The notes beneath the pieces are model-generated. The model made no database searches. It worked only from the letters and a program-made list of their open reading frames with translations, and was not told the origin of the DNA. Positions 1-48,272 of a stretch of DNA of 64,000 nt are shown piece by piece (within the stretch, counting starts at the first letter, position 1; the number at the start of each line of letters is the position of its first letter). Origin of the DNA: Aggregatilineales bacterium (GTDB lineage: Bacteria > Chloroflexota > Anaerolineae > Aggregatilineales > J027); assembly GCA_965215855.1 (NCBI GenBank), contig CBDCER010000001.1, positions 17,531-81,530 of the forward strand, in the 5' to 3' direction. The position numbers and the translations under genes were made by a program.

Positions 1-936
1 GGCTCCGAGTTCGCGCTGGATGATCGTTTGGATATAGCCAATCATGTCCCGCGCTGCGCCGAGTACCTGGGGTGTACAGCGCAGTGAATAGGGATCTTGT
101 ACGCGGGGGTCGTCGGCCCGGTGATCTGGCAGAATCGTGCTGCCCGCCAGCAACTCGCGCATCTGCCGGGCAACCGCCGCCTGCCCGGCTTGCTGTCGGA
201 TGTTGTGGACGCGCGGGTCGAGGAAAGAGTCGGTCGCACGGCAGGCATCAATTGAGAGGGCCGCCGCTCCTATTGCCGCAGCCAGGAGCCGCTTGGCATC
301 CATGACCAGCAATGCGCTCATCGCGGCCATTAGGTGCGTGCCATTGATGAGCGCCAACCCCTCTTTGGCATCCAGTATGACTGGCGTGATTCCTCGTTGT
401 GCCAGCGCCTCACTGCCAGACAAGATTCCACCATTCAGCACGGCGCTGCCTTCACCAATCAAAACACTCACGATGTGGGCGAGTGGGGCCAGATCACCAC
501 TCGCCCCCACTGATCCTCGCGATGGCACAACGGGCGTGATGCCAGCATTCAGCAGCCTGATGAGGTTCTCGACCACGACGGAGCGCACGCCAGAATGTCC
601 GCGCACTAGGCTGGCGGCTAGAATCAGCATGGCGGCCCGCACCACGTCATCTGGCAGCGGTTCGCCGATACCGGCGGCGTGGCTGCGAATCAGATTGCGC
701 TGAACCTGCTGGACCTGCTCTGGCGGAATCCGGACCCGGCTCAGGCTGCCGAAACCGGTGTTGATGCCATAGGCGACTTGCTGCTGTTCGACGACATCAT
801 CGACCACCGCTCGTCCGGTGGCAATTCGCGCATAGGCCTCGGCGTGCAACTCTACAGGTCGCCCATGCCGCGCTACTGCTTCCAGGTCGGCAAGTTGGAG
901 TGGGTTGCCGTCTATTGCCAGCGGTGTATCAGCCAT
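1..936 (-). CDS. hutH: histidine ammonia-lyase, N-terminal ~312 codons (3' end runs off the window start)
   Basis: Own minus-strand translation from ATG 936-934: MADTPLAIDGNPLQLADLEAV...VVPSRGSVGASGDLAPLAH (Ala-Ser-Gly MIO motif). Not in the ORF track because it is open at the window edge. The plus-strand ORFs here are shadow frames. Confidence 0.85.
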   Translation of the reverse strand, partial: MADTPLAIDGNPLQLADLEAVARHGRPVELHAEAYARIATGRAVVDDVVEQQQVAYGINTGFGSLSRVRIPPEQVQQVQRNLIRSHAAGIGEPLPDDVVRAAMLILAASLVRGHSGVRSVVVENLIRLLNAGITPVVPSRGSVGASGDLAPLAHIVSVLIGEGSAVLNGGILSGSEALAQRGITPVILDAKEGLALINGTHLMAAMSALLVMDAKRLLAAAIGAAALSIDACRATDSFLDPRVHNIRQQAGQAAVARQMRELLAGSTILPDHRADDPRVQDPYSLRCTPQVLGAARDMIGYIQTIIQRELGA

Positions 937-2473
937 TGTTGCCCTCTGGCACGCGCCCGTAGACCTCGGTTAGTTCGCGGATGCGATGGATGATCTCAGC
1001 GGTGAGTTGCTCTGGGTGCAAGCGCCATTGCCAGTTGCCACTTTCGCTGCTGGGATAGTTCATGCGGGCCTCGTTGCCTAAGCCCAACAAGTCCTGCATA
1101 GGCGCAATCGCAATGTCCGCGACTGACATCCAGCCGAGTCGGATCAAATCCCAATGCGCTTCGTCGTCAACCAAAATCCGTGCATATTGCCGTGCGAAGT
1201 GCCGTTCGGCGGCTACAACTGCGGGGTCATCGGTCGTGCCGGTGGTATCGGCGCGACGGAACCAGCCCATGGTGGTTTCGTTGTCGTGTGTGCCGGTGTA
1301 GACGACAGTGTTATGCTCATAGTGGTGCGGCAGAAATTCGTTGGATGTGCCTGATCCGAAGGCGAATTGGATGACAGCCATGCCTGGCAGGTCGAATTGT
1401 TTGCGGAGGGCGGTTACAGCTTGGGTGATGATGCCTAAATCTTCGGCAATGACGGGCAATGAATCGCCCAATGCGCCCTGCATCGCTTCGAAGAATGCCG
1501 CGCGTGGACCGGCCACCCAGCGCCCTTTGACCGCCGTCGGCTCCTCTGCCGGAATCTCCCAATAGTCTTCAAAGCCGCGAAAATGGTCAATGCGGATGAT
1601 GTCTACCATTGTCAGCATGGCTCGGAAGCGTTTGATCCACCAGGCAAAGCCGTTGCGCTGCATTAAGTCCCAGCGGTAGAGGGGATTGCCCCAGCGTTGG
1701 CCGGTGGCGCTGAAATAGTCGGGGGGGACGCCGGCGACGACGGTTGGGTTGCCCATGTCATCCAGGTAGAACAGGTGGGGATTGGCCCATACATCGGCGC
1801 TGTCGTGAGCCACAAAAATCGGAATGTCACCGATAATGCGGATGCCGCGTGCATTGGCCTCGGTTTTCACCGCCCACCATTGCTCGAAAAACAGCCATTG
1901 CATGAACTTTTGATAGCCGATGATGTTGCTTAGGCGTTGGCGGGCGGCGTCCAAAGTTACCGGATCACGCTGGATCAGTTCCACCGGCCACTCGACCCAG
2001 GGGCCGCCGCCGTTGTCGTATTTTAGCGCCATGAACAGGGCGAAATCGTCCAGCCACTCGGCCTGTTGGTTGCAGAACACATGATAGGCATGTTTATCTT
2101 CGTAATGGGTCTCGAAATTCTGATAGGCCTGATATAACCGGCTCATTTTGTAGTCAATGACCGGCCCATAATCCACACGCTCGGCGTAGAAGAGGGGCTG
2201 GTTGTCGTCCAGATCGCCCTGGCTTAACAAGCCTTTCTCGACCAGTCGCTCTAGGTTGATGAGCAAAGGGTTGCCCGCGAAGGCCGAAAACGATTGGTAG
2301 GGCGAGTCGCCGTAGCCGGTGGGGCCGAGGGGGAGAACTTGCCACAATTGCTGGCGGCTGGCGCTCAGGAAGTCGAGGAATTGGTAGGCGGCACTGCCCA
2401 GGTCGCCAATGCCGTGGGGGCCGGGGAGGGAAGTGGGGTGTAACAAAATGCCGCTGGATCGCTCAAATGCCAT
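929..2473 (-). CDS. malQ: 4-alpha-glucanotransferase (amylomaltase, GH77)
   Basis: 514 aa. N-terminus is RSSGILLHPTSLPGPHGIGDLG, with GH77-typical blocks along the length. Stop TGA 929-931 overlaps the hutH ATG (ATGGCTGA). Confidence 0.93.
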   Translation of the reverse strand: MAFERSSGILLHPTSLPGPHGIGDLGSAAYQFLDFLSASRQQLWQVLPLGPTGYGDSPYQSFSAFAGNPLLINLERLVEKGLLSQGDLDDNQPLFYAERVDYGPVIDYKMSRLYQAYQNFETHYEDKHAYHVFCNQQAEWLDDFALFMALKYDNGGGPWVEWPVELIQRDPVTLDAARQRLSNIIGYQKFMQWLFFEQWWAVKTEANARGIRIIGDIPIFVAHDSADVWANPHLFYLDDMGNPTVVAGVPPDYFSATGQRWGNPLYRWDLMQRNGFAWWIKRFRAMLTMVDIIRIDHFRGFEDYWEIPAEEPTAVKGRWVAGPRAAFFEAMQGALGDSLPVIAEDLGIITQAVTALRKQFDLPGMAVIQFAFGSGTSNEFLPHHYEHNTVVYTGTHDNETTMGWFRRADTTGTTDDPAVVAAERHFARQYARILVDDEAHWDLIRLGWMSVADIAIAPMQDLLGLGNEARMNYPSSESGNWQWRLHPEQLTAEIIHRIRELTEVYGRVPEGNNG

Positions 2474-2642
2474 CTTGTTTATTCGCTCCTGAAATCCAAT
2501 GTGGTGAAATTCGGCGTGGGGCTGGCTGTCGGGCGAGATAATGCAGATAAATCATGAACCAGGTAATGTTTTGGGCGGGCAGATACGTTGATCCGCCCCT
2601 ATAGCATACCCCAGATTACGCTTCTTCATGCGGAATTTGGGT

Positions 2643-2690
2643 GACGGGGGCGCTATAGCACCCCCCTACAGTCCGTTGCCGATTTCACCG
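2643..2690 (+). repeat. dispersed GC-palindrome repeat, family 2 (core ACGGGGGCGC-TATA-GCACCCCCCTACA..CCGTT)
   Basis: GGGGGCGC TATA GCACCCCC hairpin-capable core at 2646-2666. Related copies at 13859-13947, 24001-24045 and 48273-48368. Confidence 0.6.
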
Positions 2691-3035
2691 CGAAATCTAT
2701 TCGCAAAATTTCGATAGATGATACCAGACATGGCGGGGATGGGCGATGGTTTGGGTGGGGGAATGGGGCCGGGCACGACGGGAGCGAATCCAGGCCGTGC
2801 CCCAGCTTCTGTATATGCCCGACGCCACCAGTTGGCCCCATACCGGTGTGCGAAAAATCGCCTGCGTGCGGACGAGACTACCCTGCGCCTTCTCAATTTC
2901 TTCGCCGCAACCTGCAAACCGTAGTCGGCAGGCACTATTGGAAGCGGTTGTCCTATGGTGGGGAGCCGCTCGCAACCGGAGCCGCATCTTCGTGATAACG
3001 GTTATCCGGCGCCCTGTGAAGAGAGACTGAGGAGT

Positions 3036-3119
3036 GAGACGCACGCCCACCGCCACCCGCAGGCCGTTGTTGTCGTTCCTGTTGTTCGGGTTGTTGTTGC
3101 GCGAGGACGCACCCGCGTC
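3036..3119 (-). repeat. DGR template repeat (TR), non-coding
   Basis: Coding-sense sequence is ..GAC GCG GGT GCG TCC TCG CGC AAC AAC AAC CCG AAC AAC AGG AAC GAC AAC AAC GGC CTG CGG GTG GCG GTG GGC GTG CGT CTC. It has 19 A, 16 of which differ from the VR copy 231 nt away. All 65 non-A positions are identical. Confidence 0.9.
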
Positions 3120-3163
3120 CATAGCCAGGGAGCCTCATGACGCCTTGCGACGCCACGTCCATC

Positions 3164-3169
3164 ATTATA
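3164..3169 (-). promoter_or_regulatory. candidate -10 box (TATAAT) about 45 nt upstream of the TR
   Basis: Perfect TATAAT on the minus strand between the target-gene stop and the TR. No convincing -35, so this is weak. Confidence 0.25.
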
Positions 3170-3190
3170 CCCCATTTCCAAATTTGCGCG

Positions 3191-3228
3191 ATTCGCGCCT
3201 GCGGCGCGGCAGGGGGAAGTGTCCCCCT
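3191..3228 (-). promoter_or_regulatory. two GC-rich hairpins just downstream of the VR and stop codon (DGR target-site hairpin candidate and/or terminator)
   Basis: AGGGGGA-AGTG-TCCCCCT (3211-3228; 7-bp stem, 4-nt loop) and CGCGCC-TGC-GGCGCG (3194-3208). No clear U-tract follows. Confidence 0.5.
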
Positions 3229-3254
3229 ACAACCCCCTCACAGAGGACAGAGCG

Positions 3255-6140
3255 TCATTGAGAAGGGAGACGCACGCCCACCGCCACCCGCAGGCCGCCG
3301 TAGCCGGCCCCGAGGCGCGGGTTGAAGGAGCGCGAGGACGCACCCGCGCCACGGCTGTGGTACGCCCCGCCCATCAATCGCTTATAATTCGTTGATACAA
3401 AATCAATTTTCAAATCACCGCTGTCATTCAAACACCACTCCCAGACATTCCCGGCCATGTCCAACGCGCCGCAATCCGCCGCGCCGTGTGGAAAGACGCC
3501 GACCGCACTCGTCCGCCCAATACCACCTTCGCTTCCATTGACGCGCCGCGCATCAAACTTCGGCCCCCAGGGGTATCCCTGGGCTGGGTTGCCACCCGTC
3601 GCGGCGTGTATCCATTCCCACTCCGCCGGTAAGCGCACCTCGACATTACCCCCGATGACCAGCGGCGGTTGTTGCTCATCTTCAGGATGCGGCAAGGTTT
3701 CGCCCCGCAAACGAGCCGTCAACCAGCGCGTGAAGGCCACGGCCTGATACCACGACACGTTATCACGGGGATAGTTGTCGTATTTTTGGCGCTGGTTTGC
3801 CATCGACTGTTTGTGGTATTCCTCGGTCAACTCGGCCCACCATTCATCGCGCCCGAAGCCATCCTCGGCCCCCAAAAACGCCTCAAATTGGGAATAGGTG
3901 ACCAGATAGCGGGCGATGTAGAACGGCGCGACGGTGAAGGTTTGCCCTTTGATCTCGATCTGTCCGCCTGGCACCGGACACCAGTCGATTTCGGGCGTGC
4001 CATCGTCGCGGACTCCAATACCGAAACGGTCATCGCCCAGGTTGTGCAATGTCTCGCCAATCACGCTACGGCGGGCGGGGGATGTGTTGATGTCATGCAG
4101 TTCGCGCCACAGACGTTTCTGTTCTGGCTCGGTGAAGTCTAGCATCACACGGGCTTCGGTGTTGTCGGGATCGTACTCTACGCCCAGGTTGCGGCAGGCG
4201 TCCTGGAATTCGTTGATTTTGGCGGTGTTGGGCAACATGAAGTCGGGGCGGTCACGTTCATCCCACCAGCGGGCCTCGCGCTCCAGGCTGCGGATCAGGC
4301 GCAGGTCATCCTGGGTGGCCTCGATCCAGTCCGCCAGGCGTTCCCAGTTGCGTAAAATGGCCTCGTGAGCGACTTCCAGTGTCACAGCGCCGTCCTGGCG
4401 GTCGGTAATCAGGAGGCGGGCATCGGTGAAGGCGGTTACCATGTTCCGTTCGTCGGCGTCCAGGGCGTTCGGATCGATGATGGCGCGTCGCCGGGTGGCT
4501 ACGCCGCGCTCATCGACCTCGACCAGTTCATGGAAGATGGCGTGCAGCAGGGCGGTTTTGGCATCTTCAGCGCCGGATAATTTCGCAAAGACGCCCTCGG
4601 CCCGTTTGCCAATCGCGCCCGCCACGCGGCCAATGGCTTCGTAGTCGGCGAAGGTGATTTGCAGAGATTCCGGGGCGGACGAGGCATGCCTCGCCCCTAC
4701 GCGGCGGGATTCGGCGATTTTGTATAGCTCGTCCAGGGCATAGGCCATCAGTGCCAGTGCGCCGCGATCATGGCCCATGTCATCCAAGATCTGGGATACC
4801 AGTCCGTCTTCGAAGTCCAGGGCGGCGCGTTCGGCAGGGCGGACGATCATTTCGTGCAAAGCGGATAGGGTCGGGGCGGCCAGCGGGAATGTTCCGCGTT
4901 GTAGCAGGTCGGCCAGGGTGGGCAGAGCCAGGCAGCGATGGTAGAAATCGGCGCGGAGGGTGATGACGGCGCGTAAACGGTGGCTGGTGTTGATGGCGAC
5001 GAGCAGGGCGGCGAAGGATTCTAGGTAGGCAGGTTGGTTGAGGGTGAACAATTCCTCAAACTGGTCGATGAACAGCAATAGCTCGGCGTCTGGTGGGTGG
5101 GCAGTCAACGCCGCTGCGCCCCAGTTCAGGATGCTGGCTGGATCTTCGTGCAAGGTAGTCGCCAGTTGGCGGGGCACTTCGCCAACCAACGGCCCGAACC
5201 GTGCCGCTAATGCTGCAAAGGGGTTATCGCCGATTTCGCCGGGCGTAAAACGCAGGTAGACCCACTGCCGCAGGTCGTTGTTCCAGGCGGGGAGCAGCCA
5301 GCCACTGCTATCTGGCAGCGCATCATCCCCCAAACGCGGCAATAATCCGGCCCCCACAAGTGATGATTTACCGGAACCACTGGCCCCAATCACCGCCACA
5401 AATCGCGCCTCGCGCAGGCGTTGCACCAGCCGGTCGGTTTCGCGTCCGCGCCCGAAATAAATGGCGGTTTGCTGATCATTGAAGGGTTTCAGGCCGGGGA
5501 AGGGTGATCCCTGCCAGAGCTGGGGCGGGGCACCGGGTGGTTTCTCGGTGGTGGTGGTGGTGGCGTCGGGGTGCTTCCGCAGATAGCGGAGGTGGCTTTC
5601 CAGTTGTTGGGTGAACAATTCGCGGAAATCTTCGGGTTCCTCATAGCGGTTTTCAAAAACCGGGTCGCCGTCGGGTGTTTTGAAGTCGGCAAAGAAGGTC
5701 TCGACTTTTTGCCATTGGGCCAGGCGTTGTGGGGCGTCGGGTTGGCGCACATCAATTTGGGGGTCAGCCGTTCGCCGATAAACCCACGTCTCCACACCCG
5801 CTGCCAGTGCATCGCTCAACTCGTAGTGTGTGCCCGAATTATACGGCTCACCATCCATCGTCACTTCCGACCCCATCCGCGACCAGAATATCACGATGAC
5901 CAAATCACATTCGGAAGGCTTAATCAAATAACGATCCACCGATTTTTGGGCGTTGACGTTGGCAGGCATCGGCAGCGTCACCCTCGGATCATCCCAACGC
6001 AGCGGCTCCAGCGTGAATTCACCTTTGAATTCATCCTGGAAGTTCATGTCTTCGATGACTTTCGCTGCGATGCCGCGTTCCTCGGAGACATCGCCGGGAG
6101 ACGAGATGAAAATGCGGAGATGGCGGGGATCTGAGGTCAT
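3255..6140 (-). CDS. DGR target: DUF4062-like N-terminal domain + P-loop STAND NTPase + C-terminal FGE-sulfatase/C-type-lectin-fold domain
   Basis: RIFISSPGDVSEERG (DUF4062-like). FPGLKPF..IYFGRGRETDRLVQRL..FVAVIGASGSGKSSLVGAGLLPRL (Walker A) and LLLFIDQFEELF (Walker B). C-terminal YLVTYSQFEAF, NVSWYQAVAFTRWL, GNVWEWC, GGAYHS..GLRVAVG (FGE fold). Start placed at ATG 6140 (AAGGA 7 nt upstream); the ORF track extends to 6218. Confidence 0.85.
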   Translation of the reverse strand: MTSDPRHLRIFISSPGDVSEERGIAAKVIEDMNFQDEFKGEFTLEPLRWDDPRVTLPMPANVNAQKSVDRYLIKPSECDLVIVIFWSRMGSEVTMDGEPYNSGTHYELSDALAAGVETWVYRRTADPQIDVRQPDAPQRLAQWQKVETFFADFKTPDGDPVFENRYEEPEDFRELFTQQLESHLRYLRKHPDATTTTTEKPPGAPPQLWQGSPFPGLKPFNDQQTAIYFGRGRETDRLVQRLREARFVAVIGASGSGKSSLVGAGLLPRLGDDALPDSSGWLLPAWNNDLRQWVYLRFTPGEIGDNPFAALAARFGPLVGEVPRQLATTLHEDPASILNWGAAALTAHPPDAELLLFIDQFEELFTLNQPAYLESFAALLVAINTSHRLRAVITLRADFYHRCLALPTLADLLQRGTFPLAAPTLSALHEMIVRPAERAALDFEDGLVSQILDDMGHDRGALALMAYALDELYKIAESRRVGARHASSAPESLQITFADYEAIGRVAGAIGKRAEGVFAKLSGAEDAKTALLHAIFHELVEVDERGVATRRRAIIDPNALDADERNMVTAFTDARLLITDRQDGAVTLEVAHEAILRNWERLADWIEATQDDLRLIRSLEREARWWDERDRPDFMLPNTAKINEFQDACRNLGVEYDPDNTEARVMLDFTEPEQKRLWRELHDINTSPARRSVIGETLHNLGDDRFGIGVRDDGTPEIDWCPVPGGQIEIKGQTFTVAPFYIARYLVTYSQFEAFLGAEDGFGRDEWWAELTEEYHKQSMANQRQKYDNYPRDNVSWYQAVAFTRWLTARLRGETLPHPEDEQQPPLVIGGNVEVRLPAEWEWIHAATGGNPAQGYPWGPKFDARRVNGSEGGIGRTSAVGVFPHGAADCGALDMAGNVWEWCLNDSGDLKIDFVSTNYKRLMGGAYHSRGAGASSRSFNPRLGAGYGGLRVAVGVRLPSQ
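3267..3350 (-). repeat. DGR variable repeat (VR) inside the 3' end of the STAND/FGE gene
   Basis: Coding sense is ..GGC GCG GGT GCG TCC TCG CGC TCC TTC AAC CCG CGC CTC GGG GCC GGC TAC GGC GGC CTG CGG GTG GCG GTG GGC GTG CGT CTC. It differs from the TR only where the TR has A. Confidence 0.9.
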
Positions 6141-6298
6141 AGGTCGGTCCTTGTGTATCAACATGGTTTCATAGGGCAGTATTTTGATAAGCATAGCGTC
6201 CCTTGCACTACTTGCCAACCTTCACGGGATGGGCGATGCAATTCGTGGCGCGTGTGTTAAAATCGGGGTGATTATTGGGGTGCGATTGAGGACAGTGC

Positions 6299-8881
6299 AT
6301 GAGCCAGCAGATCATTGCCAACCGCTATGAAATCAACGAACTGATTGGCCGGGGAGGGATGGGCAACGTCTATCGGGGCCGCGATACCCAGACGGGCGAT
6401 TCGGTTGCTATCAAACACCTGAAAAGCCATGTCATTGAAGAAAATCCGGAGCTGATCGAACGTTTCAACCGCGAGGGCAAACTTCTCCGCAAGCTGGATC
6501 ATCCCAATATTGTTACTGTGCTGGCAACCATTGAGGAAGACGATAACCATTACATCGTCATGGAACATATCGGTGGCGGGTCGCTGCGCGATATTATGGA
6601 GCAGGACAGCCCTTTGCCCGTGCGGCACGTTCTGGAAATTGGGCTGGATATTGCCGACGCGCTGACGCGTACCCATCGCTTGAACATTATCCACCGCGAC
6701 ATCAAACCGTCGAATGTCTTGATGGCTGAAGATGGGACGCCGCGCCTGACCGATTTCGGTATTGCGCGGGGCGGTGGCGATGGGAAAACTCAACTGACCA
6801 GTACGGGGGCCGTGCTGGGGACTTATGCTTATCTCAGCCCTGAAGCCTGCATGGGGGAAGAACTGGACGCCCGGGCTGACATCTGGGCGTTTGGCGTCAT
6901 GCTATATGAAATGCTGACGGGGCAGCGCCCGTTTGAATATGGGCACGAAGCCGCGACTCTGATCGCTATTTTGCAGGAGGAGACGCCGGATGTGCGCCAG
7001 GCGCGTCCGGATATGCCGGAAGAACTTGCCATTTTGATCGACCATGCTCTCATTAAAGAGCGCGACCAGCGCATTCCCAGTATCCGTCGCGTTGGTGCTG
7101 AGTTGGAAGCGATTTTGTTCTCACTGGATAAACGTAGTAGTGATGGGTCGCGGTTTGCTACCCCCTCCACGTCATCGGCTATGCCAATCTCTGCTTCGCG
7201 CCTGACCCGCTCCCCGACGGATACTGCTGGGGAAGAAAACACCGTACTCATGACTGAAACCGGCTTTGGCAAACGTACATCGCGGTGGCAACGGTTTCTG
7301 GCTGTGGACATTTTTGTTGCATTTGCTATTCTGGTTGTTGCCGTGCTGCTGTTCGCCACTGGTATATTGAGCGGCGATGATGATGCGGAGCAACAACCCA
7401 CAGCGGTCGCCGTTGTCGCTCCCCAGGATTCCGACCACTATATTGTCCTCGTTGCGCAAATGGAACCTCTGACGTCCAATGAACGTGATGTCAGCCGATT
7501 CATTGTCGATAATTTGCAGCAAAAACTGGAGCGCGAAATCACGTTCTCGAACATTCGGGTTTTTGCCTATCCGGGGATTATACGTAGCGAGGCCGAGGCA
7601 CAGATTATTGCTGAAGCCAACAATGCCGTTGTTGTCGTTTGGGGCAACTATACCACTGACGTCATTGAGCTGGAGATTCAATTGGGCGCGACCGCTGTAT
7701 TCGCCGATATACCCATCTCGCGCACTCGGATTCAAGAAGCGACCAACGTGCGCGTTCATATGGAGAATGAACGGTTGGAGTCTATTGCGCCGCAGGTGTT
7801 GGGCGTCATTGCCGTTTTGCAAAATGCCAGTGGCGATGGCTATGAACTGAGCCGCACGGTGGCGATATTGGCTGAACTGGATGTGGTTGATGCTGAGATT
7901 TTTGGCAACAGCGTCGCGGCCCATACCCACCGCTTTTTCCGGTCTTTCTTGATTGATTCGGATGTGGCACTCCAGGAAATCCGCGCTGCTCAGGTACTGG
8001 CGGCTGGCAACCCCATTCTCTATACTGCCGCCGCCAGCGCCTATATGCGTTTCGGCCAGTTGCAGAGCGCCCGCACTGATATTGAGATCGCGTTACGCCT
8101 CGAAACGTCTGATGAATGGGCGATGCCGCTCTATTTGCAGGCCAATGATGCCTTAATAACCAACGATATTGATGCTGCTATTGAAATATATAGCGACATC
8201 ATCATGCTGCGCCCCGATGATTGGTTTCCGCATAATTTCCGGGGCGCGTTGTATTATCTGAAAGCAGATTATCGACAGGCCAGCGTTGATCTCGATACTT
8301 CGCTGAGGCTGGAACCCAACGCCAATTTCCCTTACCTGTTTTCGGTATCCATTGCGTTGCGGGAAGGGCGCATTGCCGACGCTCAACAATTGATGCGGGA
8401 GGTACTCGCTCGCTTTCCTGATCCCTCGTTAGGCAATCGGACCATCACCGCGACCTATGGCGACCAGTTTCCGATCCCCTTTGGCCCGCTGTTCTCAGCT
8501 TTTGGTAATTTGCTGTTGGGGCGCTATGAGGACGTGATTACCGATGCTGAACAGGGTCTAGTGATGGACAGCCAAATACCTGAAATTTATATGTTGCAGG
8601 GATTGGCCCATTGTAATCTGGATGATGATGAATCGGCTGTAGACGCCTATACAGCAGCTATTGAACTGGCTCCGGATTTCTATACGCTTTATTTGTTGCG
8701 CGGTGATGCCCGTTTTCGCGCGGATGATGTTGATGGATCGAATCAGGACGCTGCGACTGCCACTGACCCAGATAATGGCCTGGATAACGCTTTGATGCCG
8801 TATTTATTAGCAGGTGTGCGCGGCGAATTGACCTGCAAGAATTTCTTCAGCTATGAGTTGCCGGAAGAAGATAATGACTGA
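6299..8881 (+). CDS. Ser/Thr protein kinase - single TM - extracytoplasmic domain - TPR repeats
   Basis: GRGGMGNVYRG, AIK, HRDIKPSN, DFG, SPE (Hanks motifs). TM segment FLAVDIFVAFAILVVAVLLFATGIL. TPR-like C-terminal half. Confidence 0.9.
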   Translation: MSQQIIANRYEINELIGRGGMGNVYRGRDTQTGDSVAIKHLKSHVIEENPELIERFNREGKLLRKLDHPNIVTVLATIEEDDNHYIVMEHIGGGSLRDIMEQDSPLPVRHVLEIGLDIADALTRTHRLNIIHRDIKPSNVLMAEDGTPRLTDFGIARGGGDGKTQLTSTGAVLGTYAYLSPEACMGEELDARADIWAFGVMLYEMLTGQRPFEYGHEAATLIAILQEETPDVRQARPDMPEELAILIDHALIKERDQRIPSIRRVGAELEAILFSLDKRSSDGSRFATPSTSSAMPISASRLTRSPTDTAGEENTVLMTETGFGKRTSRWQRFLAVDIFVAFAILVVAVLLFATGILSGDDDAEQQPTAVAVVAPQDSDHYIVLVAQMEPLTSNERDVSRFIVDNLQQKLEREITFSNIRVFAYPGIIRSEAEAQIIAEANNAVVVVWGNYTTDVIELEIQLGATAVFADIPISRTRIQEATNVRVHMENERLESIAPQVLGVIAVLQNASGDGYELSRTVAILAELDVVDAEIFGNSVAAHTHRFFRSFLIDSDVALQEIRAAQVLAAGNPILYTAAASAYMRFGQLQSARTDIEIALRLETSDEWAMPLYLQANDALITNDIDAAIEIYSDIIMLRPDDWFPHNFRGALYYLKADYRQASVDLDTSLRLEPNANFPYLFSVSIALREGRIADAQQLMREVLARFPDPSLGNRTITATYGDQFPIPFGPLFSAFGNLLLGRYEDVITDAEQGLVMDSQIPEIYMLQGLAHCNLDDDESAVDAYTAAIELAPDFYTLYLLRGDARFRADDVDGSNQDAATATDPDNGLDNALMPYLLAGVRGELTCKNFFSYELPEEDND

Positions 8882-11492
8882 GCAAGCGAGACCGATACTC
8901 GCTGACCGTTTTGAAGTGGGTGACCGTTTGGGGCGGGGCGGCATGGGGGATGTCTTTTTAGGCCGCGATTTGCAGACCGGTGATCAGGTTGCCGTCAAAT
9001 TGCTGAAACCGGAAATTGTGGAGCATGATCCTGACCTCGTGAAACGCTTTGACCGCGAGGGCGAGATGCTTCGTAAACTGAACCATCCGAACATCGTTAC
9101 GATTCTGGCAACTTTGCAGGAAGATGGTAAACACTACATTGTCATGGAATATGTTGGCGGCGGTTCTTTGCAGGATTTACTTCAGCAGCAGCCCCAACTG
9201 CCAGTGCAGCGCGTCCTCGAAATCGCTCTCGATATTGCTGACGCACTGACGCGTGCCCATCGCCTAAACATCATTCACCGCGACATCAAACCCGCCAATG
9301 TGCTGATTGATGAGGAAGGGCTGCCGCGCCTGACCGATTTCGGCGTCGCCCATATGGGAGATCGTACCCGCCTGACGGAAACAGGTTCTCTCATTGGGAC
9401 TTATGCTTATCTCAGCCCAGAAGCCTGTCAGGGGGTTGATCTGGATGAGCGTGCTGACATTTGGGCATTTGGTGTGATGCTCTATGAAATGTTGGCCGGA
9501 CAGCGCCCGTTTGTGTCAGATAAGGTCGGCACGTTGCTGGTGCAGATTATGAATCAACCTGTCCCATCCTTGATCGAGTACCGGCCTGATGTTCCCATAG
9601 AATTGGCCGAACTGGTTCATTGGATGCTGGAAAGGGAACGCGAGGATCGCGCCCCGACCGTGCGAGTGGTCGGCGCTCAACTGGAAGGCTTGATGCGCGG
9701 CATTGATACTACGCCCCAGACAGGCCGTGCATCTGTGCAAAAAGTTGATGCGGAAGCCAAATCGCGCTTTGCTACACCAACGCCTTCCAGTGGTGGCCCG
9801 GTGGCGGAAGGCGACACCGCTATTACCCCACCGGAGTCAATCAGGGTTGAATTGCCGGCAAGCTCTAATGTGATTGGGGTTGGACAATCACATTGGCTGA
9901 AGTGGGTTACGGTGATTATTGGCATCCTGGCGGTTGCAGCGGTCGTCATCGCCGGCATGTTTTATGGGGGAAGGCGCGATGATGAAGGCGATACTTCGCG
10001 TCGATCTGTCGATCAAATTGCCAATTATGTCGGTGAAGCTGTTCCCGACGATGAATTTCTGATTTTGGTGGCCCATCTGGAACCTATCAACACAGATGAG
10101 CGCGAGGTTGCCCGCTTCATCATTGACGATTTGAGCCAATATCTTGAAGTCAGCATTCCTGATTCCACCATGCACGTTCGGGAATATCCGGATATTGTTA
10201 TCTCGTCGGAGCGGGCCAGCCGGGCTGCTGCTGCGAATAAAGCTGCTGTGATTGTTTGGGGAAGCTACACTGATACGTTTATTCAACTGGATGTCCAGAT
10301 TGGCTCACTCCATGCGTTTCCATATAACGATTTCCCCCGCGAAGATGTGGAGCGCGTTACCAATCTTCGGGTGCGGATGACGGATGTTTTTGAGGAGTCG
10401 GTCACGCCAGTGGTGTTGAATGCTCTCAATACGTTGTATGCCGCCAACGGCGACGCTTTTGACGTGCTGCGAATCGGCGTGATCGCCAGCCATATGAATC
10501 TTGTGCCAGCCCAGCCGGTTGGTGACAGCCTGGCGGCTTACAGCTATCGGGCCAGCATCGCGCCTTATCTATTCGAGACTCAGGCCGATAGTGATGTGTA
10601 TGCTGAAGAACAACTGGCCGCAGCCCTCACCATCGAGCAGCACCCACTCATCTATACACAGCGCAGTATGTGGTATGTTACACAAGGGCGTTTTGATGAA
10701 TCACGGGAAGACGCCCAAACTGCCATCCTGCGTGGCCCCGATGACTGGGTCATTCCTATGTACGTCATTACAACGGGTTCTGACTTTCAAGAAACGATTG
10801 ATTTGTTTTCCACCATTGTCGAACTTCGCCCCGAAGACTGGTATGCAGCTTACCAACTCGGCGCTCTTTACTATTCTGTGGGAGTGACCGAGCTTGCCAT
10901 CGCTTACTTAGATCAGGCCGTTGCTTTAGAAGCCGAAGCTAGTTTCCCGTATCTTGTCCGGGGAATTATGGCCCTCCACGATGGGCAACTGGCCCTTGCT
11001 GCTCAACTCATGCAAGTTGTCGTAGACAAATTTCCTGATCCATCCTACAGTCGCCGTCTGATGCAGGCGTCTTTTGGTGATCAGGAAGGGTTCTATGTGT
11101 GGGATGCCTATTTGAATGCGGCTACTAGCTTGGCTTTGAGTCAACATAACGATGTGCTGGCAGCTCTGGAGAACATCGTCCTCGAAGTCCCCCTGTCCGA
11201 TTTCAGCCTGTTACAAGGTCTGGCTTATTGCAATCTGGGTGAGTATGCTGCTGCGGAGGAAGCTTATAGCCGTGCCTTGCAGCTTGATCCCGATTTCAGA
11301 ATGCTCTATCTATTTCGGGCCGAAGTCAGCACTCATCAGGAGGATACCGACGGCGCTGTAGCCGATTTTGCACTGGCCCGCCAACATGGCTACGGACCGG
11401 AATTCGATACCGTCATTGCTGCTTATGAAGCGGGTAATCTGACCTGCGAAAACCTCTTCATCTATTCGTCGCAAGCTGCTACCATCGACTGA
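8874..11492 (+). CDS. Ser/Thr protein kinase - TM - TPR, tandem paralog of the upstream gene
   Basis: Same architecture and collinear similarity to 6299-8881, including the C-terminal LTC(K/E)N(F/L)F. ATG 8874 overlaps the upstream stop (ATGACTGA). The ORF track starts at 8853. Confidence 0.9.
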   Translation: MTEQARPILADRFEVGDRLGRGGMGDVFLGRDLQTGDQVAVKLLKPEIVEHDPDLVKRFDREGEMLRKLNHPNIVTILATLQEDGKHYIVMEYVGGGSLQDLLQQQPQLPVQRVLEIALDIADALTRAHRLNIIHRDIKPANVLIDEEGLPRLTDFGVAHMGDRTRLTETGSLIGTYAYLSPEACQGVDLDERADIWAFGVMLYEMLAGQRPFVSDKVGTLLVQIMNQPVPSLIEYRPDVPIELAELVHWMLEREREDRAPTVRVVGAQLEGLMRGIDTTPQTGRASVQKVDAEAKSRFATPTPSSGGPVAEGDTAITPPESIRVELPASSNVIGVGQSHWLKWVTVIIGILAVAAVVIAGMFYGGRRDDEGDTSRRSVDQIANYVGEAVPDDEFLILVAHLEPINTDEREVARFIIDDLSQYLEVSIPDSTMHVREYPDIVISSERASRAAAANKAAVIVWGSYTDTFIQLDVQIGSLHAFPYNDFPREDVERVTNLRVRMTDVFEESVTPVVLNALNTLYAANGDAFDVLRIGVIASHMNLVPAQPVGDSLAAYSYRASIAPYLFETQADSDVYAEEQLAAALTIEQHPLIYTQRSMWYVTQGRFDESREDAQTAILRGPDDWVIPMYVITTGSDFQETIDLFSTIVELRPEDWYAAYQLGALYYSVGVTELAIAYLDQAVALEAEASFPYLVRGIMALHDGQLALAAQLMQVVVDKFPDPSYSRRLMQASFGDQEGFYVWDAYLNAATSLALSQHNDVLAALENIVLEVPLSDFSLLQGLAYCNLGEYAAAEEAYSRALQLDPDFRMLYLFRAEVSTHQEDTDGAVADFALARQHGYGPEFDTVIAAYEAGNLTCENLFIYSSQAATID

Positions 11493-11528: not shown

Positions 11529-13556
11529 ATGCGTTTTAGACCAATGATGATTTTGATGATGCTCGTGGTGTTGTTGCTCTCCGTCGGCCCAACAGCCGCC
11601 ATCGACACACACGATTCATCGCCGTTAGCGTCACAAGATGAGCCAGCACCTTTGCTCAAAATCGGCGAGGTGCAGGGCGCAATTACTGATGACGAAACCG
11701 ACCCGGAGAATTTTAGTTCGCCGTATCGCAATGAGCGCGTGCAGGTATCTGGTGTGGTCACCAACCTCATCATGCTCAACACCGATGGCCGCGAGGTCAG
11801 CGGCTTCTTTTTGCAGGAGACTGCTGAAAACAGTGACGGCGATCCCAACACTTCCGATGGTATTCAAGCGATCATCGGCGCGTCTCCCAGTTTGGATGAC
11901 TACACTCCTGCGGTGGGCGACATCATCACCATTGAGGGCAAGGTTGAGGAGTATTATGGTTTGACGCGCCTGACGCGCCTGGCTTTTGTCAGTCTTGATG
12001 GGCAGGTTGATCACCTGACCGATGCCATTCCACCTGTCGAGATCAATCCGGGCAATGTATTACTGGAAAATTCCATTGTTTATGAACGTTTGGAAGGGAT
12101 GCGGGTTATCGTTCCCGTTCCGACGCTGGTCGTTTCTCCGACACACTTGTTTTCCTCGACCAATGACACAGAAACCTATGTCATTCGTTCCGATCATCCG
12201 GTGGCTCAACGGGAGGACCCACTCACGCGCCGTATCTTCCGTGATCCGCACGAATTGGACGACGGCCTGCCGGGCGAGAATCCGTATCGCATTTCCGTTG
12301 AGGGCAATATTTTGAAGGCAGAAGCGGGTGATTACAACGTCAATCTTCCAGCTTATAATACCTACGACACATTTTCTTCGTCGTTAGTTGGCAACATCGT
12401 GTATAGTTTTGGACGTTATACGCTGCAGATCGAAGCGTTGCCTGACCACGAAGTGAGCCTGTTGCCTGATACCAATGCACCCGTTGAAGCTCCAGACCGT
12501 GCCATCCAGTACACTGTCGCTACCTATAACATCGAAAATTTCTACGACTACTACAACGACCCCATTGATTTCCGCGACACGCCCGGTGACGGCACACTCA
12601 ACTATGTTCCGCTTTCCGTTGAACATTACGATGCGAGAGTCACCAAGCTGGCGTTGTCCATTATCGAAGACCTTCATGCACCGGACATTATCGCGTTCCA
12701 AGAAATTGAAGATCAGGACGTGTGTGTGGGTGGGGGGCAGGTTTATGGCACATGTGCCGATGTTGATAATGCTGATGGGATGCCGGATGTGTTGCAAGAT
12801 GTGGCTATTCGGATCAGTGAACTGACCGACGGCGAAGTCGTCTATATATCGGTCACCGACCGTGAAAGCGCCGATGATCGTGGCATCTCGCAGGGCTATC
12901 TCTACCGTGCAGATCGTGTTGAAATGCCGACGGCTGATCCGACAGACCCCGTCCTCGGTGAGCGTCCTGAAGATCCCGACGCCCGTTATTATGAATTCAA
13001 CCAGTCGGTGAGCAATCCCAAATCGCTCAACCAGCGTTTCGGCCCCGGCACACCGCTGTTCACGCGTCCGCCGCTGGTGGGTCTGTTCCACATCTATCAT
13101 GAGACGGTGGGTGAAGGGGATTATGTGGCGGTTTATCTCTCTGATAACCACTTCAAGAGCGACCCGACTGGCTACAATGCTCTGCGCGAGTTCCAATCGC
13201 TCTACAATCTCAGCTTTGTTGAAGCACTTCAGGCCGAGAATCCTGATGTCTACTTCATCATCCTGGGGGATCTGAATTCCTTCCGCGAATCGCAAGAAAT
13301 GGCAACGCTGGAGCCGACTATGACCAGCCTGTGGGAGATGATTCCTGCCGAGTCGCGCTATACCTATATTTTTGCCGGGCAAACGCAGACACTCGACTAC
13401 ATCTATGCTACACCTAATCTGGTCGACCACCTGGACTCGGTACGTGTCGCCCATATCAATGCCGACTATAGTTTCACCTATGAAACTGATGCGTCGCTGA
13501 GTTGGCGGGCTGCTGATCACGACCCGATTGTCGCAACCTTTAACTTCCCTGAATAG
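11529..13556 (+). CDS. secreted ExeM/NucH-type extracellular nuclease (endonuclease/exonuclease/phosphatase fold)
   Basis: Signal peptide MRFRPMMILMMLVVLLLSVGPTAA. EEP blocks ATYNIENF, AFQEIED, GDLNSF, DHDPIVATF. Confidence 0.8.
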   Translation: MRFRPMMILMMLVVLLLSVGPTAAIDTHDSSPLASQDEPAPLLKIGEVQGAITDDETDPENFSSPYRNERVQVSGVVTNLIMLNTDGREVSGFFLQETAENSDGDPNTSDGIQAIIGASPSLDDYTPAVGDIITIEGKVEEYYGLTRLTRLAFVSLDGQVDHLTDAIPPVEINPGNVLLENSIVYERLEGMRVIVPVPTLVVSPTHLFSSTNDTETYVIRSDHPVAQREDPLTRRIFRDPHELDDGLPGENPYRISVEGNILKAEAGDYNVNLPAYNTYDTFSSSLVGNIVYSFGRYTLQIEALPDHEVSLLPDTNAPVEAPDRAIQYTVATYNIENFYDYYNDPIDFRDTPGDGTLNYVPLSVEHYDARVTKLALSIIEDLHAPDIIAFQEIEDQDVCVGGGQVYGTCADVDNADGMPDVLQDVAIRISELTDGEVVYISVTDRESADDRGISQGYLYRADRVEMPTADPTDPVLGERPEDPDARYYEFNQSVSNPKSLNQRFGPGTPLFTRPPLVGLFHIYHETVGEGDYVAVYLSDNHFKSDPTGYNALREFQSLYNLSFVEALQAENPDVYFIILGDLNSFRESQEMATLEPTMTSLWEMIPAESRYTYIFAGQTQTLDYIYATPNLVDHLDSVRVAHINADYSFTYETDASLSWRAADHDPIVATFNFPE

Positions 13557-13710: not shown

Positions 13711-13858
13711 ACGCGGACTCCCCCAAGCATACCTTCGATGCTCCCGTTGGTTGTAGAGGGAGGACTGTTCGTATTCTCAAATCCCGCTCATAAAGCGATG
13801 AATCGTACCAGGCACGAATCCTTTTTTAGTATGATCCTGTCGGCGAACTAGTGTAATA

Positions 13859-13952: not shown

Positions 13953-14855
13953 TTATCCGACGCAGTCGCTCAGAAAATCCAGGATGCGGTTGAAGCGTTC
14001 TGGCGTCAGGGCATGTTCGCCATCATCGCGGAAATGCGTGATATGTTCATTCGATACGGCGCGGGCAATTACCTCGGTGGCATCTTTCGCATAACGGTCA
14101 TTCTCAGCGGAGACAACAAACAACGGGCGCGGTGCGATACAATCCAACAGGTGATATAAATCCCAGCGGGCGGCAAAACCCGGAATGACGAGGGCCAACT
14201 CTAATGCAATATTATGCTCACGCTTGTAGGCATAGGAACACAACGCCCCGCTCGATACTGCAAAACGGATGCGAGGTTCCAGTGCTGCCTGAAATAGCAC
14301 GGTATTGCCGCCATAAGAATGTCCCAGCGCACCGATTTTAGTGGTGTCCATCTGTGGATGATGCGCTAACAGCGATAGAGCAGTGGACGCATCGGAAAGC
14401 ACTTTTCGCATCAAGGTGTCGCCCTGTGTCAGCCGGTTTCCCATTTCGATGTAGTGCTGGATGTCATCGTGTTCGTGGGGTTCGATACCGGTGGCGTTGC
14501 GGCGGCGGTCTTCAAAACAAATCGAATCGGGAGCTAGAATCATAAAGCCGCGTTTTGCCAGTTCTGGGCCAAATGCCTGCAAGGGATCGCCCGCAATGCC
14601 CATGATCTCGCTCTTGCCCAGGTAGCGTTGGCTGGCGTGTTGGTGATGGACCAGCACTGCGGGAAATGGTCCGTCGCCATCTGGGGATAGCAGGAATGCT
14701 GGAATCTCATCGCCATCGGCAGCCTTGTATATGATTCGTTGTCGGGTAAATCCGGTGTCGGGCACGGTTTCCAGAACTTCATAATCTATCGCTGTTTCAA
14801 TACGTTCCAAATTCAAAAAGCGCCGGATGTCTTCACGCAGCGTTGATGGATTCAT
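13953..14855 (-). CDS. alpha/beta hydrolase (dienelactone-hydrolase-like)
   Basis: GHSYGG nucleophile elbow, C-terminal His region and overall length. Confidence 0.7.
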   Translation of the reverse strand: MNPSTLREDIRRFLNLERIETAIDYEVLETVPDTGFTRQRIIYKAADGDEIPAFLLSPDGDGPFPAVLVHHQHASQRYLGKSEIMGIAGDPLQAFGPELAKRGFMILAPDSICFEDRRRNATGIEPHEHDDIQHYIEMGNRLTQGDTLMRKVLSDASTALSLLAHHPQMDTTKIGALGHSYGGNTVLFQAALEPRIRFAVSSGALCSYAYKREHNIALELALVIPGFAARWDLYHLLDCIAPRPLFVVSAENDRYAKDATEVIARAVSNEHITHFRDDGEHALTPERFNRILDFLSDCVG

Positions 14856-33880: not shown

Positions 33881-33891
33881 CAGAATACCCT

Positions 33892-34401
33892 CTAGGGTTG
33901 TTCGGCGCGATAGTGTCCACTTTGGCCGCCGGATTTTTCGAGCAGGCGAATGCCCTCCAGCCGCATCTCACGATCCATGGCTTTTGCCATATCGTAGACG
34001 GTCAGGGCAGCTACACTGACGGCAGTTAAGGCTTCCATTTCCACGCCGGTTTTGCCAGTGGTGCGGGCTGTGGCTTGGATAATAACGGCATGGGCGTCGG
34101 CATCCAGTGTAAAACTCAGGTCAATATGCGTGAGGGGCAGGGGATGGCAAAGGGGAATGAGGTCGGCAGTATGCTTGGCGGCCATGATACCTGCAATGCG
34201 GGCGACGGTAATCACATCTCCTTTTTTGATATTGCCATCGCGCACGGCAGCAAACGTGTGTTCGTTCATCAAGACACGCCCTTGGGCTATGGCTGTCCGT
34301 TCGGTGTCGGGTTTATGACCGACATCGACCATGCGGGCTGTGCCCTGGGCATCCAGATGCGTCAGGTTATTCTTTGGCTTTGGGTTCAAAGGGTGTGACA
34401 T
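33892..34401 (-). CDS. moaC: cyclic pyranopterin monophosphate synthase
   Basis: [35 protein letters not shown]. Start is at 34401 or 34416, and both overlap the upstream FHA gene. Confidence 0.9.
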
Positions 34402-35979: not shown

Positions 35980-35999
35980 CCGCTAAAGGAGCATAACTC

Positions 36000-48230: not shown

Positions 48231-48272
48231 TGTCGATCCCAAACATGACTCTGTTACGAATTGACGTGGTAA

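Follow-up and report, generated by a model that had tools for sequence, protein, structure and literature searches.

How is a DGR target diversified when its template lies beside it and the gene of the enzyme does not? The question is raised by a locus near the start of the 64,000-nt stretch of DNA analysed here (the window), in which a template repeat (TR) and a variable repeat (VR) stand close together at the end of a target gene. The earlier note on this DNA had left three options for the reverse transcriptase (RT), namely that it lies beyond the start of the window, that it acts in trans, or that it has been lost. The features of the locus are collected in Table 1.

Table 1. Positions of the cassette features and flanking genes in the window.
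Feature	Position	Strand	Remarks
hutH	1-936	minus	Lyase_aromatic, E 1.3e-119; window ends inside hutH
malQ	929-2473	minus	Glyco_hydro_77, E 3.6e-182
DGR-RNA-like module	2762-3160	minus	37-43 nt upstream of TR, TR, and 266 nt downstream
Hairpin element, 63 nt	2762-2824	minus	3' end of the conserved block
Long-range duplex, downstream strand	2874-2888	minus	predicted; RNAalifold columns 276-290
UACG-tetraloop stem-loop	2903-2940	minus	CCUGCCGAC-UACG-GUUUGCAGG; covariance model R1
Stem-loop directly 3' of TR	2972-3012	minus	RNAalifold pair table (columns 152-192) and single-sequence fold
Template repeat (TR)	3028-3117	minus	20 adenines
VR-TR spacer	3118-3258	minus	141 nt, no avd gene; contains hairpin and TATAAT
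Long-range duplex, upstream strand	3124-3136	minus	predicted; RNAalifold columns 25-37
Inverted repeat AGGGGGA-CACT-TCCCCCT	3211-3228	minus	GC-rich, 7 bp, 4-nt loop; read from the sequence, and DNA fold
Variable repeat (VR)	3259-3348	minus	last 30 codons of target gene
Parts of VR	3297-3329; 3330-3348, 3259-3296	minus	variable core; constant flanks
Target gene	3255-6140	minus	961 aa from ATG at 6140

The repeat pair and its target gene

A repeat search of the window returned the near-repeat pair 3028-3117 and 3259-3348, which is 90 nt long and 81% identical. Read on the minus strand, TR and VR mismatch at 17 positions, 16 of which are TR adenines; 16 of the 20 TR adenines are altered in VR, with no mismatch at the 69 other non-A positions outside the IMH end. 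The sole non-A mismatch lies within the last 5 nt, as expected, because IMH and IMH* should differ there. The variable adenines occupy positions 1 and 2 of AAC, AGG and GAC codons, in frame; the 33-nt TR core (3066-3098), with 18 of the 20 adenines, consists of three AAC codons, CCG, two AAC, AGG, AAC, GAC and two AAC. The 30-nt and 19-nt flanks common to TR and VR each occur exactly twice in the window (shuffle expectation 0.00 and 0.06, respectively). The minus-strand repeat at 3028-3117 is a genuine DGR TR, non-coding, and that at 3259-3348 is its coding VR, with all differences but one at TR adenines. An adenine-specific near-repeat of this kind, with AAC codons, with a VR ending a CLec/FGE-fold domain, is also found in canonical DGRs of the Bordetella phage BPP-1 type (target-avd-TR-RT). 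Their representative here, L045, has a full-length DUF4062-nSTAND1-FGE homologue together with bAvd, TR and RT. The TR of the window is homologous to the TRs of the RT-linked loci L045, L040, L031 and L109, and with L045 the homology includes the TR core.

The VR lies at the C-terminus of its target, in which Pfam recognises DUF4062 (E 1.6e-5), an nSTAND1 NTPase (E 6.7e-101) and a C-terminal FGE-sulfatase/C-type-lectin fold (residues 759-978, E 4.3e-29). The ORF extends to a TTG at 6218 in the ORF listing, giving 987 aa; a database protein of 961 aa (P0001) is 100% identical to the target and is the single member of its 90% cluster. A STAND NTPase with a C-terminal FGE/CLec domain that bears the VR is the architecture of nSTAND-CLec conflict-system sensors, and the target is a putative sensor of this conflict-system type (DUF4062-nSTAND1-CLec).

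The target-site elements of a DGR are also present. A GC-rich identical stretch of 30 nt followed by diverging TR and VR ends, i.e., the IMH/IMH* feature, is kept both in the window and in a related locus, L081, and the GC-rich 3' end of the homology is followed by a hairpin, as in L045 and other canonical DGRs. DGR target-site hairpins are GC-rich, have a 4-nt loop and lie 4-34 bp downstream. In the window, the 7-bp hairpin lies 26 nt past the stop codon and 30 nt past the end of the TR/VR homology, and it is 100% identical in L081. It is a candidate hairpin/cruciform target-recognition element, although its loop, CACT, departs from the GRNA consensus of canonical DGRs.

The spacer between VR and TR, put at 147 nt by the earlier note, measures 141 nt. 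The same position in canonical relatives is taken by a bAvd ORF, recognised by Pfam in L045 and L114 and by jackhmmer homology in L040. The TATAAT at 3164-3169 (minus strand), proposed as a promoter of the TR, is indeed there, but does little to support a dedicated promoter, since the promoter scan found no acceptable -35 partner. Beyond the TR, the order malQ, then hutH, was confirmed by Pfam. The intervening stretch of about 560 nt, described as lacking a credible ORF, is 554 nt long (2474-3027), and Pfam gave no match for its two ORFs (141 aa, reading through TR, and 89 aa); the 141-aa ORF is disrupted by a 1-nt indel relative to L081.

RT and Avd genes in the window and around the related block

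The cassette differs from canonical DGRs in that neither RT nor avd accompanies it, and the absence described in the earlier note holds across all 64 kb by tblastn, RT HMM, bAvd HMM and Pfam. With seven DGR RTs as tblastn queries, the best match in the window had an E value of 5.9; an HMM of 15 DGR RTs, run with --max against every stop-to-stop ORF of 40 aa or more, gave a best E value of 2.2; Pfam found no RVT_1 among about 50 window ORFs; and the best bAvd HMM match in the window had an E value of 1.3. A regex search agreed that no window ORF carries RT motifs: apart from YLDD in MalQ it found four other Y/F-x-DD strings, none of them in an RT context. RT and CLec database searches returned no protein on the source contig or on the L081 contig. 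An accessory gene (avd or HRDC) accompanies about 74% of DGRs and hence is not universal; the cassette of the window contains neither.

L081 is a 612-kb metagenome contig with a 63%-identical homologue of the target and the same block of about 3.45 kb. The conserved block (about 2762-6200, minus strand) starts about 60 nt upstream of the ATG at 6140 and ends at 2762 in the window and at 13766 in L081, and it is flanked by unrelated genes in the two genomes. Around the L081 block, neither RT nor Avd was found in the 10 kb upstream or in the 9.4 kb downstream, which makes an RT just beyond position 1 of the window unlikely. Moreover, the two genomes have homologous VR-TR spacers without avd, so the state without Avd and RT predates their split. 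The target ORF is intact in both, and a comparison of their VRs shows 13 differences, every one of them at a TR adenine, with all 70 non-A positions identical. Of the three options of the earlier note, action in trans is therefore favoured, as the same block with the same borders recurs in another neighbourhood without RT or Avd for about 10 kb and its VR has diverged at adenines only, and loss is a possible outcome.

The window ends inside hutH, and DGRs have been documented with ORFs nested among their components and with RT-target distances that form a continuum, so that an RT, with or without avd, could be imagined beyond hutH, more than 3.6 kb from TR and separated from it by two housekeeping genes. 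We regard such a stretched cis arrangement as highly improbable, given that the L081 block ends at the same nucleotide and gives way to unrelated genes, and that the RT lies at most about 2.2 kb from TR in 15 of 15 RT-linked relatives, in most of them at most about 0.6 kb.

The non-coding module beside the TR

The module matches L081 13348-13766 with 94% identity over 421 nt, and 14 substitutions were counted in 395 nt. Over the entire non-coding block (about 490 nt), the divergence between the two genomes is about 4%, as against a pS of 0.45 and a dS of 0.70 in the adjoining 228 CLec codons, and the drop in divergence is located at the 5' edge of VR.

A covariance model (R1), trained only on RT-linked relatives (10 loci), had 88% of its cells paired, compared with 45-47% when slid, and compensatory changes in 9 of 10 pairs. 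Its best match in the whole window is the UACG-capped stem-loop (18.9 bits, E 0.033), which corresponds to the YACG stem-loop conserved 3' of TRs in RT-linked relatives of the clade. The match lies about 88-125 nt past TR, not directly after it. In a held-out locus (L034), the match of the model lies 11 nt past TR. The Avd-binding element of BPP-1 has an 11-bp stem and a UNCG tetraloop (bioRxiv 10.1101/2023.10.23.563531). As a tetraloop-capped stem-loop after TR that resembles this element, as in canonical DGRs, the stem-loop at 2903-2940 is by analogy a candidate Avd-binding stem-loop. Unlike canonical DGRs, the window has an extra hairpin between TR and this stem-loop, in which RNAalifold found one compensatory pair relative to L081 (C-G to U-A, window 3008/2977). 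RNAalifold, run on the two sequences, also predicted a 12-bp long-range duplex that brackets TR and is kept in both genomes; it is possibly an analogue of the 'cPRT stop' duplex. The 63-nt hairpin element at the 3' end has a second copy in L081, 784 nt further on, and for that reason it may be a REP-like repeat and not part of a DGR RNA. With a repeated element at the 3' border, which could be a recombination hot spot, the argument that a shared border means shared ancestry is weakened.

Does the module still function, or is the locus a frozen relic that has lost its matching RT-Avd, whether in cis or in trans, so that TR, VR and module are inert and the VR is fixed? The L081 substitutions did not spare the base pairs predicted from the window alone (5 pairs broken, 5.1 expected at random), and the fold of the module is no more stable than that of shuffles (z -0.59); the low divergence may thus reflect recent common ancestry or gene conversion and not selection. 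Every stage of DGR decay is present among relatives, including an 83-aa RT stub beside a TR-less target (L162), a partial RT (L018) and an Sp-like hairpin remnant without TR (L003). Leftovers have been published as well, namely Nostoc all3226 and T. denticola isolates that have VRs but neither RT nor TR. An inert locus, however, would not be expected to combine a TR that, apart from the IMH end, departs from VR at adenines only, intact target ORFs in two genomes, VR divergence confined to adenines after the block without RT and Avd arose, and a non-coding block about 4% divergent next to synonymous sites that differ by 45%. We consider the relic rather unlikely.

In L081, VR and TR fail to match at a 3-nt indel and at non-A sites: the 3-nt insertion and the C>T change found in the L081 TR are both absent from the L081 VR, which indicates that this TR copy has not templated the VR since. 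The window TR accounts for both VRs with A-only changes. Besides agreeing with a relic, this fit of the L081 VR to the window-type, ancestral TR would also be seen if the VR were rewritten as a remote target from a master TR of the same sequence in a complete DGR elsewhere, the local module being an unused by-product of segmental duplication. DGRs of the clade commonly have several targets, with remote VRs, and duplicated DGR loci with one common TR sequence are described in PB-PSB1. A redundant copy, on the other hand, should decay, and the adenines of TR are preserved in both modules, as are the TR-specific 3' end and the stem-loop capped by UACG. Moreover, the VR is not without a TR of its own, a complete one lying one spacer away; a flank search found no further TR or VR copy in 64 kb; and exact-match scans of three collections, from which the source genome is absent, found no other copy. 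A passenger TR is in our view improbable.

Proposed supply of RT-Avd from another locus and its precedents

That the locus is a self-contained satellite DGR cassette without enzyme genes, with RT-Avd acting from another locus, is, judging from the sequence, moderately probable. We infer both the enzyme and its present-day activity: an RT-Avd encoded at another locus would have acted on the cassette in the past and probably does so today. The cassette comprises its own upstream region, a putative sensor gene ending in VR, marks of the homing site (the GC-rich homology end and the 7-bp hairpin) and a non-coding TR module, some 400 nt long, that is laid out like a DGR RNA, i.e., TR bracketed by the predicted duplex and followed by stem-loops, including the UACG-capped one. 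The module would be transcribed from the -10-like box or by read-through from the target gene; the RT-Avd complex would bind the 3' stem-loops of its RNA and copy TR into adenine-mutagenised cDNA, which would then replace the adjacent VR. According to the account of Guo et al. cited in PMC5758913, DGR RNA given with RT and Avd in trans works experimentally.

The earlier note went too far in calling the arrangement undescribed, as precedents exist in Nostoc and Thiohalocapsa. In Thiohalocapsa sp. PB-PSB1, diversification in trans was inferred for RT-less 'degenerate' loci (Dore et al. 2024, PMC10907252). The main text gives a match to the TR of DGR 2 for the VRs of both DGR 4 and DGR 5, and Dataset S1 assigns the DGR 4 VRs to a TR at about 2.12 Mb, with the target at about 3.60 Mb (PMC10907252), so those loci behave as remote targets. 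Chromosomal clade-5-type DGRs there target nSTAND/NACHT-CLec conflict proteins, an architecture shared by the target of the window, in multicellular bacteria (PMC10907252). Unlike those RT-less loci, the one in the window has retained a complete TR RNA module of its own, and it lacks avd too. L081 has a MITE-like insertion between VR and TR, and the PB-PSB1 loci were remodelled by MITE-like elements (PMC10907252).

In Nostoc sp. PCC 7120, all3226 is, like the target of the window, a CLec-domain gene, in that case a paralogue, with TR-VR homology and no proximal RT gene or pseudogene; one sentence calls this homology a 'remnant' and takes it to mean that the machinery for diversification was removed (Vallota-Eastman et al. 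2020, PMC7517822). In contrast to the present case, the all3226 report shows neither a conserved RNA module nor a second genome, nor VR divergence restricted to adenines (PMC7517822). Remote or non-adjacent targets, on which the RT acts far from its gene, are known from Treponema denticola and Trichodesmium erythraeum (Wu et al. 2018, PMC5758913; Pfreundt et al. 2014, PMC4143802), and in Trichodesmium the TR is transcribed separately, as a 265-nt RNA from a promoter of its own (PMC4143802). In these systems, however, TR adjoins RT and only the VRs are dispersed, whereas here TR is dispersed along with VR.

As a more tentative extension, RT-Avd complexes in filamentous Chloroflexota may serve several scattered TR RNAs, each TR being packaged with its own target as an enzyme-less 'TR-VR satellite' of about 3.5 kb that moves or recombines as a unit, with VR as the natural crossover point. 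If RT-Avd uses TR RNAs from other loci, a single enzyme could act on several hypermutation targets, each programmed independently, and the features by which it recognises the RNA could be read from satellites, because only the functional RNA is kept in them. One enzyme with many private templates would then form a distributed hypermutation network hidden from RT-anchored surveys. The cassette, with its putative promoter, target, VR, hairpin and TR RNA, would also lend itself, as a compact natural design, to the engineering of DGR diversification in trans.

By their own statement, the survey approach of Roux et al. misses remote targets (PMC8144416), and as large DGR surveys start at the RT gene, enzyme-less cassettes with their own TR are invisible to them. 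An independent second case is L114, where the order target-bAvd-TR is followed by an M20 peptidase and the 12.2-kb contig holds no RT. Together with the window and L081, it brings the RT-less cassettes with a TR to 3 of the 19 TR-bearing loci in our small survey, which suggests that such cassettes may not be rare among conflict-system targets.

The repeats and the search for enzyme genes

[quoted passage not shown] In minus-strand orientation the copies differ at 17 positions, 16 of which coincide with adenines of the TR; of its 20 adenines, 16 are altered in the VR. The only other difference lies within the last 5 nt; the ends of the TR and the VR of a DGR normally differ. The TR adenines sit in in-frame AAC, AGG and GAC codons, and the VR constitutes the last 30 codons of the target gene. 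The constant flanks, of 19 nt and 30 nt, each occur in exactly two copies in the 64 kb (expected, 0.06 and 0.00). Exact matches to the 26-nt core of the repeats were absent from GTDB genomes, JGI metagenomes and IMG/VR, collections that lack the source genome. The layout described in the earlier note holds, with its gap sizes amended: 141 nt instead of 147 nt from VR to TR, and 554 nt instead of about 560 nt from TR to malQ.

Coordinates of the target gene, the repeats and neighboring genes in the window and in L081, a homologous locus of a second genome
Feature	Locus	Coordinates	Strand	Remarks
Target ORF	window	3255-6140/6218	minus	961/987 aa; DUF4062, nSTAND1 (E 6.7e-101), FGE-sulfatase/CLec (E 4.3e-29), by Pfam
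VR	window	3259-3348	minus
TR	window	3028-3117	minus
malQ	window	929-2473	minus	same strand as target; downstream of TR
hutH, truncated	window	1-936	minus	same strand as target; after malQ
VR	L081	12874-12962
TR	L081	13409-13500

The claim that no reverse transcriptase (RT) or accessory (Avd) gene accompanies this cassette was borne out by all searches of the window. The RT motif scan gave Y/F-x-DD strings out of context only, tblastn with seven DGR RTs of related loci reached a best E of 5.9, and an HMM of 15 such RTs did no better than E 2.2 when run unfiltered on all stop-to-stop ORFs of 40 aa or more. The bAvd HMM gave a best E of 1.3. No RVT_1 domain was found by Pfam in about 50 ORFs, which are ordinary chromosomal genes (lepA, miaA, ftsY, prfB, mutL, secDF, moaCE, ABC transporters, kinases). 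Likewise, the stretch between TR and malQ contains no credible ORF, as had been proposed: its ORFs have no Pfam match and no RT or Avd HMM signal, and a 1-nt indel relative to L081 also speaks against a coding reading.

Two tandem, overlapping Ser/Thr-kinase-TPR paralogues (6299-8881 and 8853-11492) are divergent from the target gene, and may be its partners in one conflict or signalling system.

The same block in a second genome

A protein search with the target retrieved its identical database copy (P0001, on a 242,552-bp contig) and one homologue clearly closer than the rest, P0002, with 63% identity, encoded in L081 on the 612,236-bp metagenome contig ena:ERZ25072999:ctg320144_7x_l. In L081, neither RT nor Avd gave a signal over 10 kb upstream and 9.4 kb downstream. 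The alignment of the two loci consists of a single conserved block, which starts about 60 nt before the start codon and comprises the gene with its VR, 95 nt after the stop codon, and the TR with 37 nt of upstream and 266 nt of downstream sequence, ending at window position 2762 and L081 position 13766. Outside it the sequences are unrelated: the block is flanked by malQ-hutH and the Ser/Thr kinases in the window, and by CoA-binding, enoyl-CoA hydratase and nucleotidyltransferase genes in L081. The sole large difference within the block is a MITE-like insertion of about 305 nt between VR and TR of L081 (13056-13365), bordered by a duplication of about 13 nt (junction copies AAATGGAGTATAC and AAATGGAATATAC). 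An 88-nt stretch of the insertion has 77% identity with intergenic DNA of the window (13720-13805), which suggests a mobile element family common to both genomes.

A hairpin-forming element of 63-74 nt, GGGGCACGGCCTGGATTCGCTCCCGTCGTGCCCGGCCCC (window 2762-2824, minus strand; L081 13704-13777), closes the block on its 3' side. L081 has a second copy 784 nt further on (14488-14561), and the other 165 loci have none. The element may be a REP-like repeat or a terminator, and these last 63 nt of the block, being repeated, could be a recombination hot spot.

Since both copies share the borders and the avd-less VR-TR spacer, the comparison indicates that the block lacked RT and avd already in their common ancestor. 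The alternative that an RT gene lies just beyond hutH, where the window ends, appears very improbable.

The divergence between the two copies is uneven. It is saturated at the N-terminus of the gene, falls to a dS of about 0.7 (pS 0.45) in the 228 CLec codons before the VR, and drops sharply on entry into the VR from its 5' side. The constant codons of the VR have no synonymous changes, the 95 nt after the stop codon have about 6 differences, and the non-coding, DGR-RNA-like module around the TR (2762-3160, minus strand) has 14 substitutions in 395 nt, with 94% identity over 421 nt. The low divergence of the non-coding block may reflect a younger common ancestor of the segment from VR to module than of the rest of the gene. 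Recombination at the VR could have this effect, because no other stretch is kept identical among paralogues.

The VRs themselves, with their variable cores at window 3297-3329 and L081 12893-12925, have since come to differ at 13 positions, all 13 of them among the 20 TR-adenine sites, and at none of the 70 non-adenine positions. This bears the mark of DGR mutagenesis rather than of ordinary drift, which changed about 4% of the neighboring non-coding DNA and none of those 70 positions. The window TR accounts for both VRs by adenine-only changes. Two changes in the L081 TR, a 3-nt insertion (AAC to AAT CAC) and a C>T substitution, are missing from its own VR. The simplest reading, towards which we lean with some reserve, is that an RT-Avd pair encoded elsewhere has used the cassette and may still do so. 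Another source of such changes would be a master TR at a different locus, the local TR then being a passenger; this seems to us quite unlikely. A protein-database search with the RT of L045, a canonical RT-linked relative, placed none of its best 120 matches on the contig of the window or of L081, a result that is uninformative because thousands of RTs exist. With the CLec domain alone as the query for paralogous targets, the best match had 54% identity, and none was on either contig.

Use of the cassette by an RT-Avd pair encoded elsewhere would be consistent with several published findings: a plasmid-borne avd-TR-brt works in trans, according to PMC5758913, which cites Guo et al.; trans diversification was inferred in PB-PSB1 (PMC10907252); and in Trichodesmium the TR RNA is independently transcribed (PMC4143802).

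The RNA module and the target site

Rfam gave no match at E<=1 in window 1-7000. Ten RT-linked TRs of related loci are followed by a hairpin whose 10-bp stem is capped by a YACG tetraloop. In its alignment 88% of cells pair, compared with 45-47% when the partner was slid, and 9 of 10 pairs have changes on both sides. A covariance model trained solely on those ten loci found its best match of the whole window inside the TR module (2903-2940, minus strand; 18.9 bits, E 0.033), and also matched L081 at the homologous position. Held-out loci, about 1 Mb in all, gave three matches at E<=1, including one 11 nt past the TR of locus L034. The hairpin with a UCACGAA loop at about 2972-3012 was discarded as the conserved one, as the model picked 2903-2940 instead. 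The UACG hairpin had no exact match in IMG/VR. RNAalifold predicted two structures: pairing of 3124-3136 with 2874-2888, which gives a 12-bp duplex around the TR, and a TR-adjacent hairpin with one compensatory change, C-G to U-A. In the published BPP-1 DGR RNA, which our YACG hairpin matches, the Avd-binding element is an 11-bp stem with a UNCG tetraloop, and the 'cPRT stop' is a duplex that joins sequence before the TR to sequence after it; stem-loops of this kind were predicted for 207 of 278 Avd-containing DGRs (bioRxiv 10.1101/2023.10.23.563531).

Compared with shuffled sequence, the TR module shows no excess stability (z -0.59). The zero broken pairs in the RNAalifold structure, which would speak for purifying selection on RNA structure, proved to be an artefact of a fit to two sequences: on the structure predicted from the window only, the L081 substitutions broke 5 pairs, against 5.1 for random changes of the same type. 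Therefore, the low non-coding divergence is not attributable to structural selection.

Downstream of the VR, a GC-rich inverted repeat (7-bp stem, 4-nt loop) lies 30 nt past the end of homology and is identical in L081; its size and distance fit the range of DGR target hairpins, but it does not have their GRNA loop (PMC3240598). The TATAAT box at 3164-3169, which the earlier note proposed as a promoter of the TR, is real (TATACT in L081), but the promoter scan found no -35 box, so that a sigma-70 promoter was not accepted. A near-perfect palindrome, GGGGGCGCTATAGCACCCCC, lies upstream of malQ (2646-2665); motifs that resemble it, of a TATGCT(A/T)TA-like form, occur ahead of malQ, the target gene and the TR, and may be the -10 region of this organism.

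Related loci and other genes of the window

Among 166 loci retrieved with the target protein as query, 18 have a TR/VR pair, the window not counted. An RT is encoded in 15 of the 18, L040 is cut by a contig end, and L081 and L114 have none. Most TR-bearing loci have a bAvd-like ORF, usually adjoining the TR. L114 (5828-10847 of a 12.2-kb JGI contig) is an independent RT-less cassette: its target gene (982 aa), bAvd (8831-9181) and TR (9246-9388) are followed by a Peptidase_M20 gene in the place of the RT, and no RT signal was found on the entire contig.

Other relatives are eroded. L162 is a decayed DGR, with an 83-aa C-terminal stub of a DGR RT (12994-13266, minus strand) convergent to a 48%-identical nSTAND1-FGE target without a TR, among plasmid or ICE-like genes (Replic_Relax, ParA, primase, integrase). 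L003 has, at 12678-12800, a YACG stem-loop found by the covariance model and then sequence like the TR-downstream region of locus L006, about 560 nt after the target gene, with a small minus-strand ORF between and no TR or RT; this is probably a DGR RNA remnant. L018 has a partial RT. Such decay among relatives (the L162 stub, the L018 RT, the Sp-like remnant of L003), as well as the drift of the L081 TR from its VR, would fit a frozen relic, in which the cassette is no longer served and the VR is fixed; we regard this as unlikely, yet as an explanation of some weight.

In L164 (6849-20443), four tandem nSTAND1/NACHT-FGE paralogues, one with TIR_2, have no RT within 10 kb; their C-terminal regions give weak TR/VR profile matches (nhmmer E 3e-8 to 4e-4), and they may be remote DGR targets. 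Such targets have no TR of their own, unlike the cassette, which is a DGR component set and not a complete DGR: TR/VR pair, target fold and target site are present, the RNA architecture is probably present in part, and adjacent RT and Avd are absent. Among the degenerate loci of PB-PSB1, the VRs of DGR 4 are assigned by Dataset S1 to a distantly located TR, and the text matches the VRs of DGR 4 and 5 to the DGR 2 TR (PMC10907252). The arrangement had been taken to be undescribed, which is too strong: the nearest precedent is Nostoc all3226, for which one sentence mentions 'remnant TR-VR homology' without a proximal RT (PMC7517822). What is new is a complete avd-less, RT-less block of TR RNA plus target in two genomes and different contexts, with evidence from the VR comparison for adenine mutagenesis at a time when the enzyme genes had already left the block.

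In L163 (10001-17122), a target homologue with 47% identity adjoins prfB-ftsY-moaC-moaE, which in the window lie at 33137-37086, 30 kb from the cassette, and the housekeeping proteins of the two are 64-73% identical; thus, the target genes occupy different chromosomal positions in related Anaerolineae. The window prfB (RF2) ORF (36154-37086) has no in-frame N-terminus, and about 90 nt upstream there is a CTTTGAC (36063-36069), which we take to be the classic programmed +1 frameshift site. Among the housekeeping genes there are also an IS4-type DDE transposase (DDE_Tnp_1 plus associated domain; 31905-33068, minus strand) and an Mrr-like restriction endonuclease with a HARE-HTH domain (16387-17421, minus strand). 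Five consecutive SH3_3/GDSL-lipase paralogues occupy 45782-52970, one with GDSL only, three with both domains and one with SH3_3 only. The outermost two lie on the minus strand, the three between them on the plus strand.
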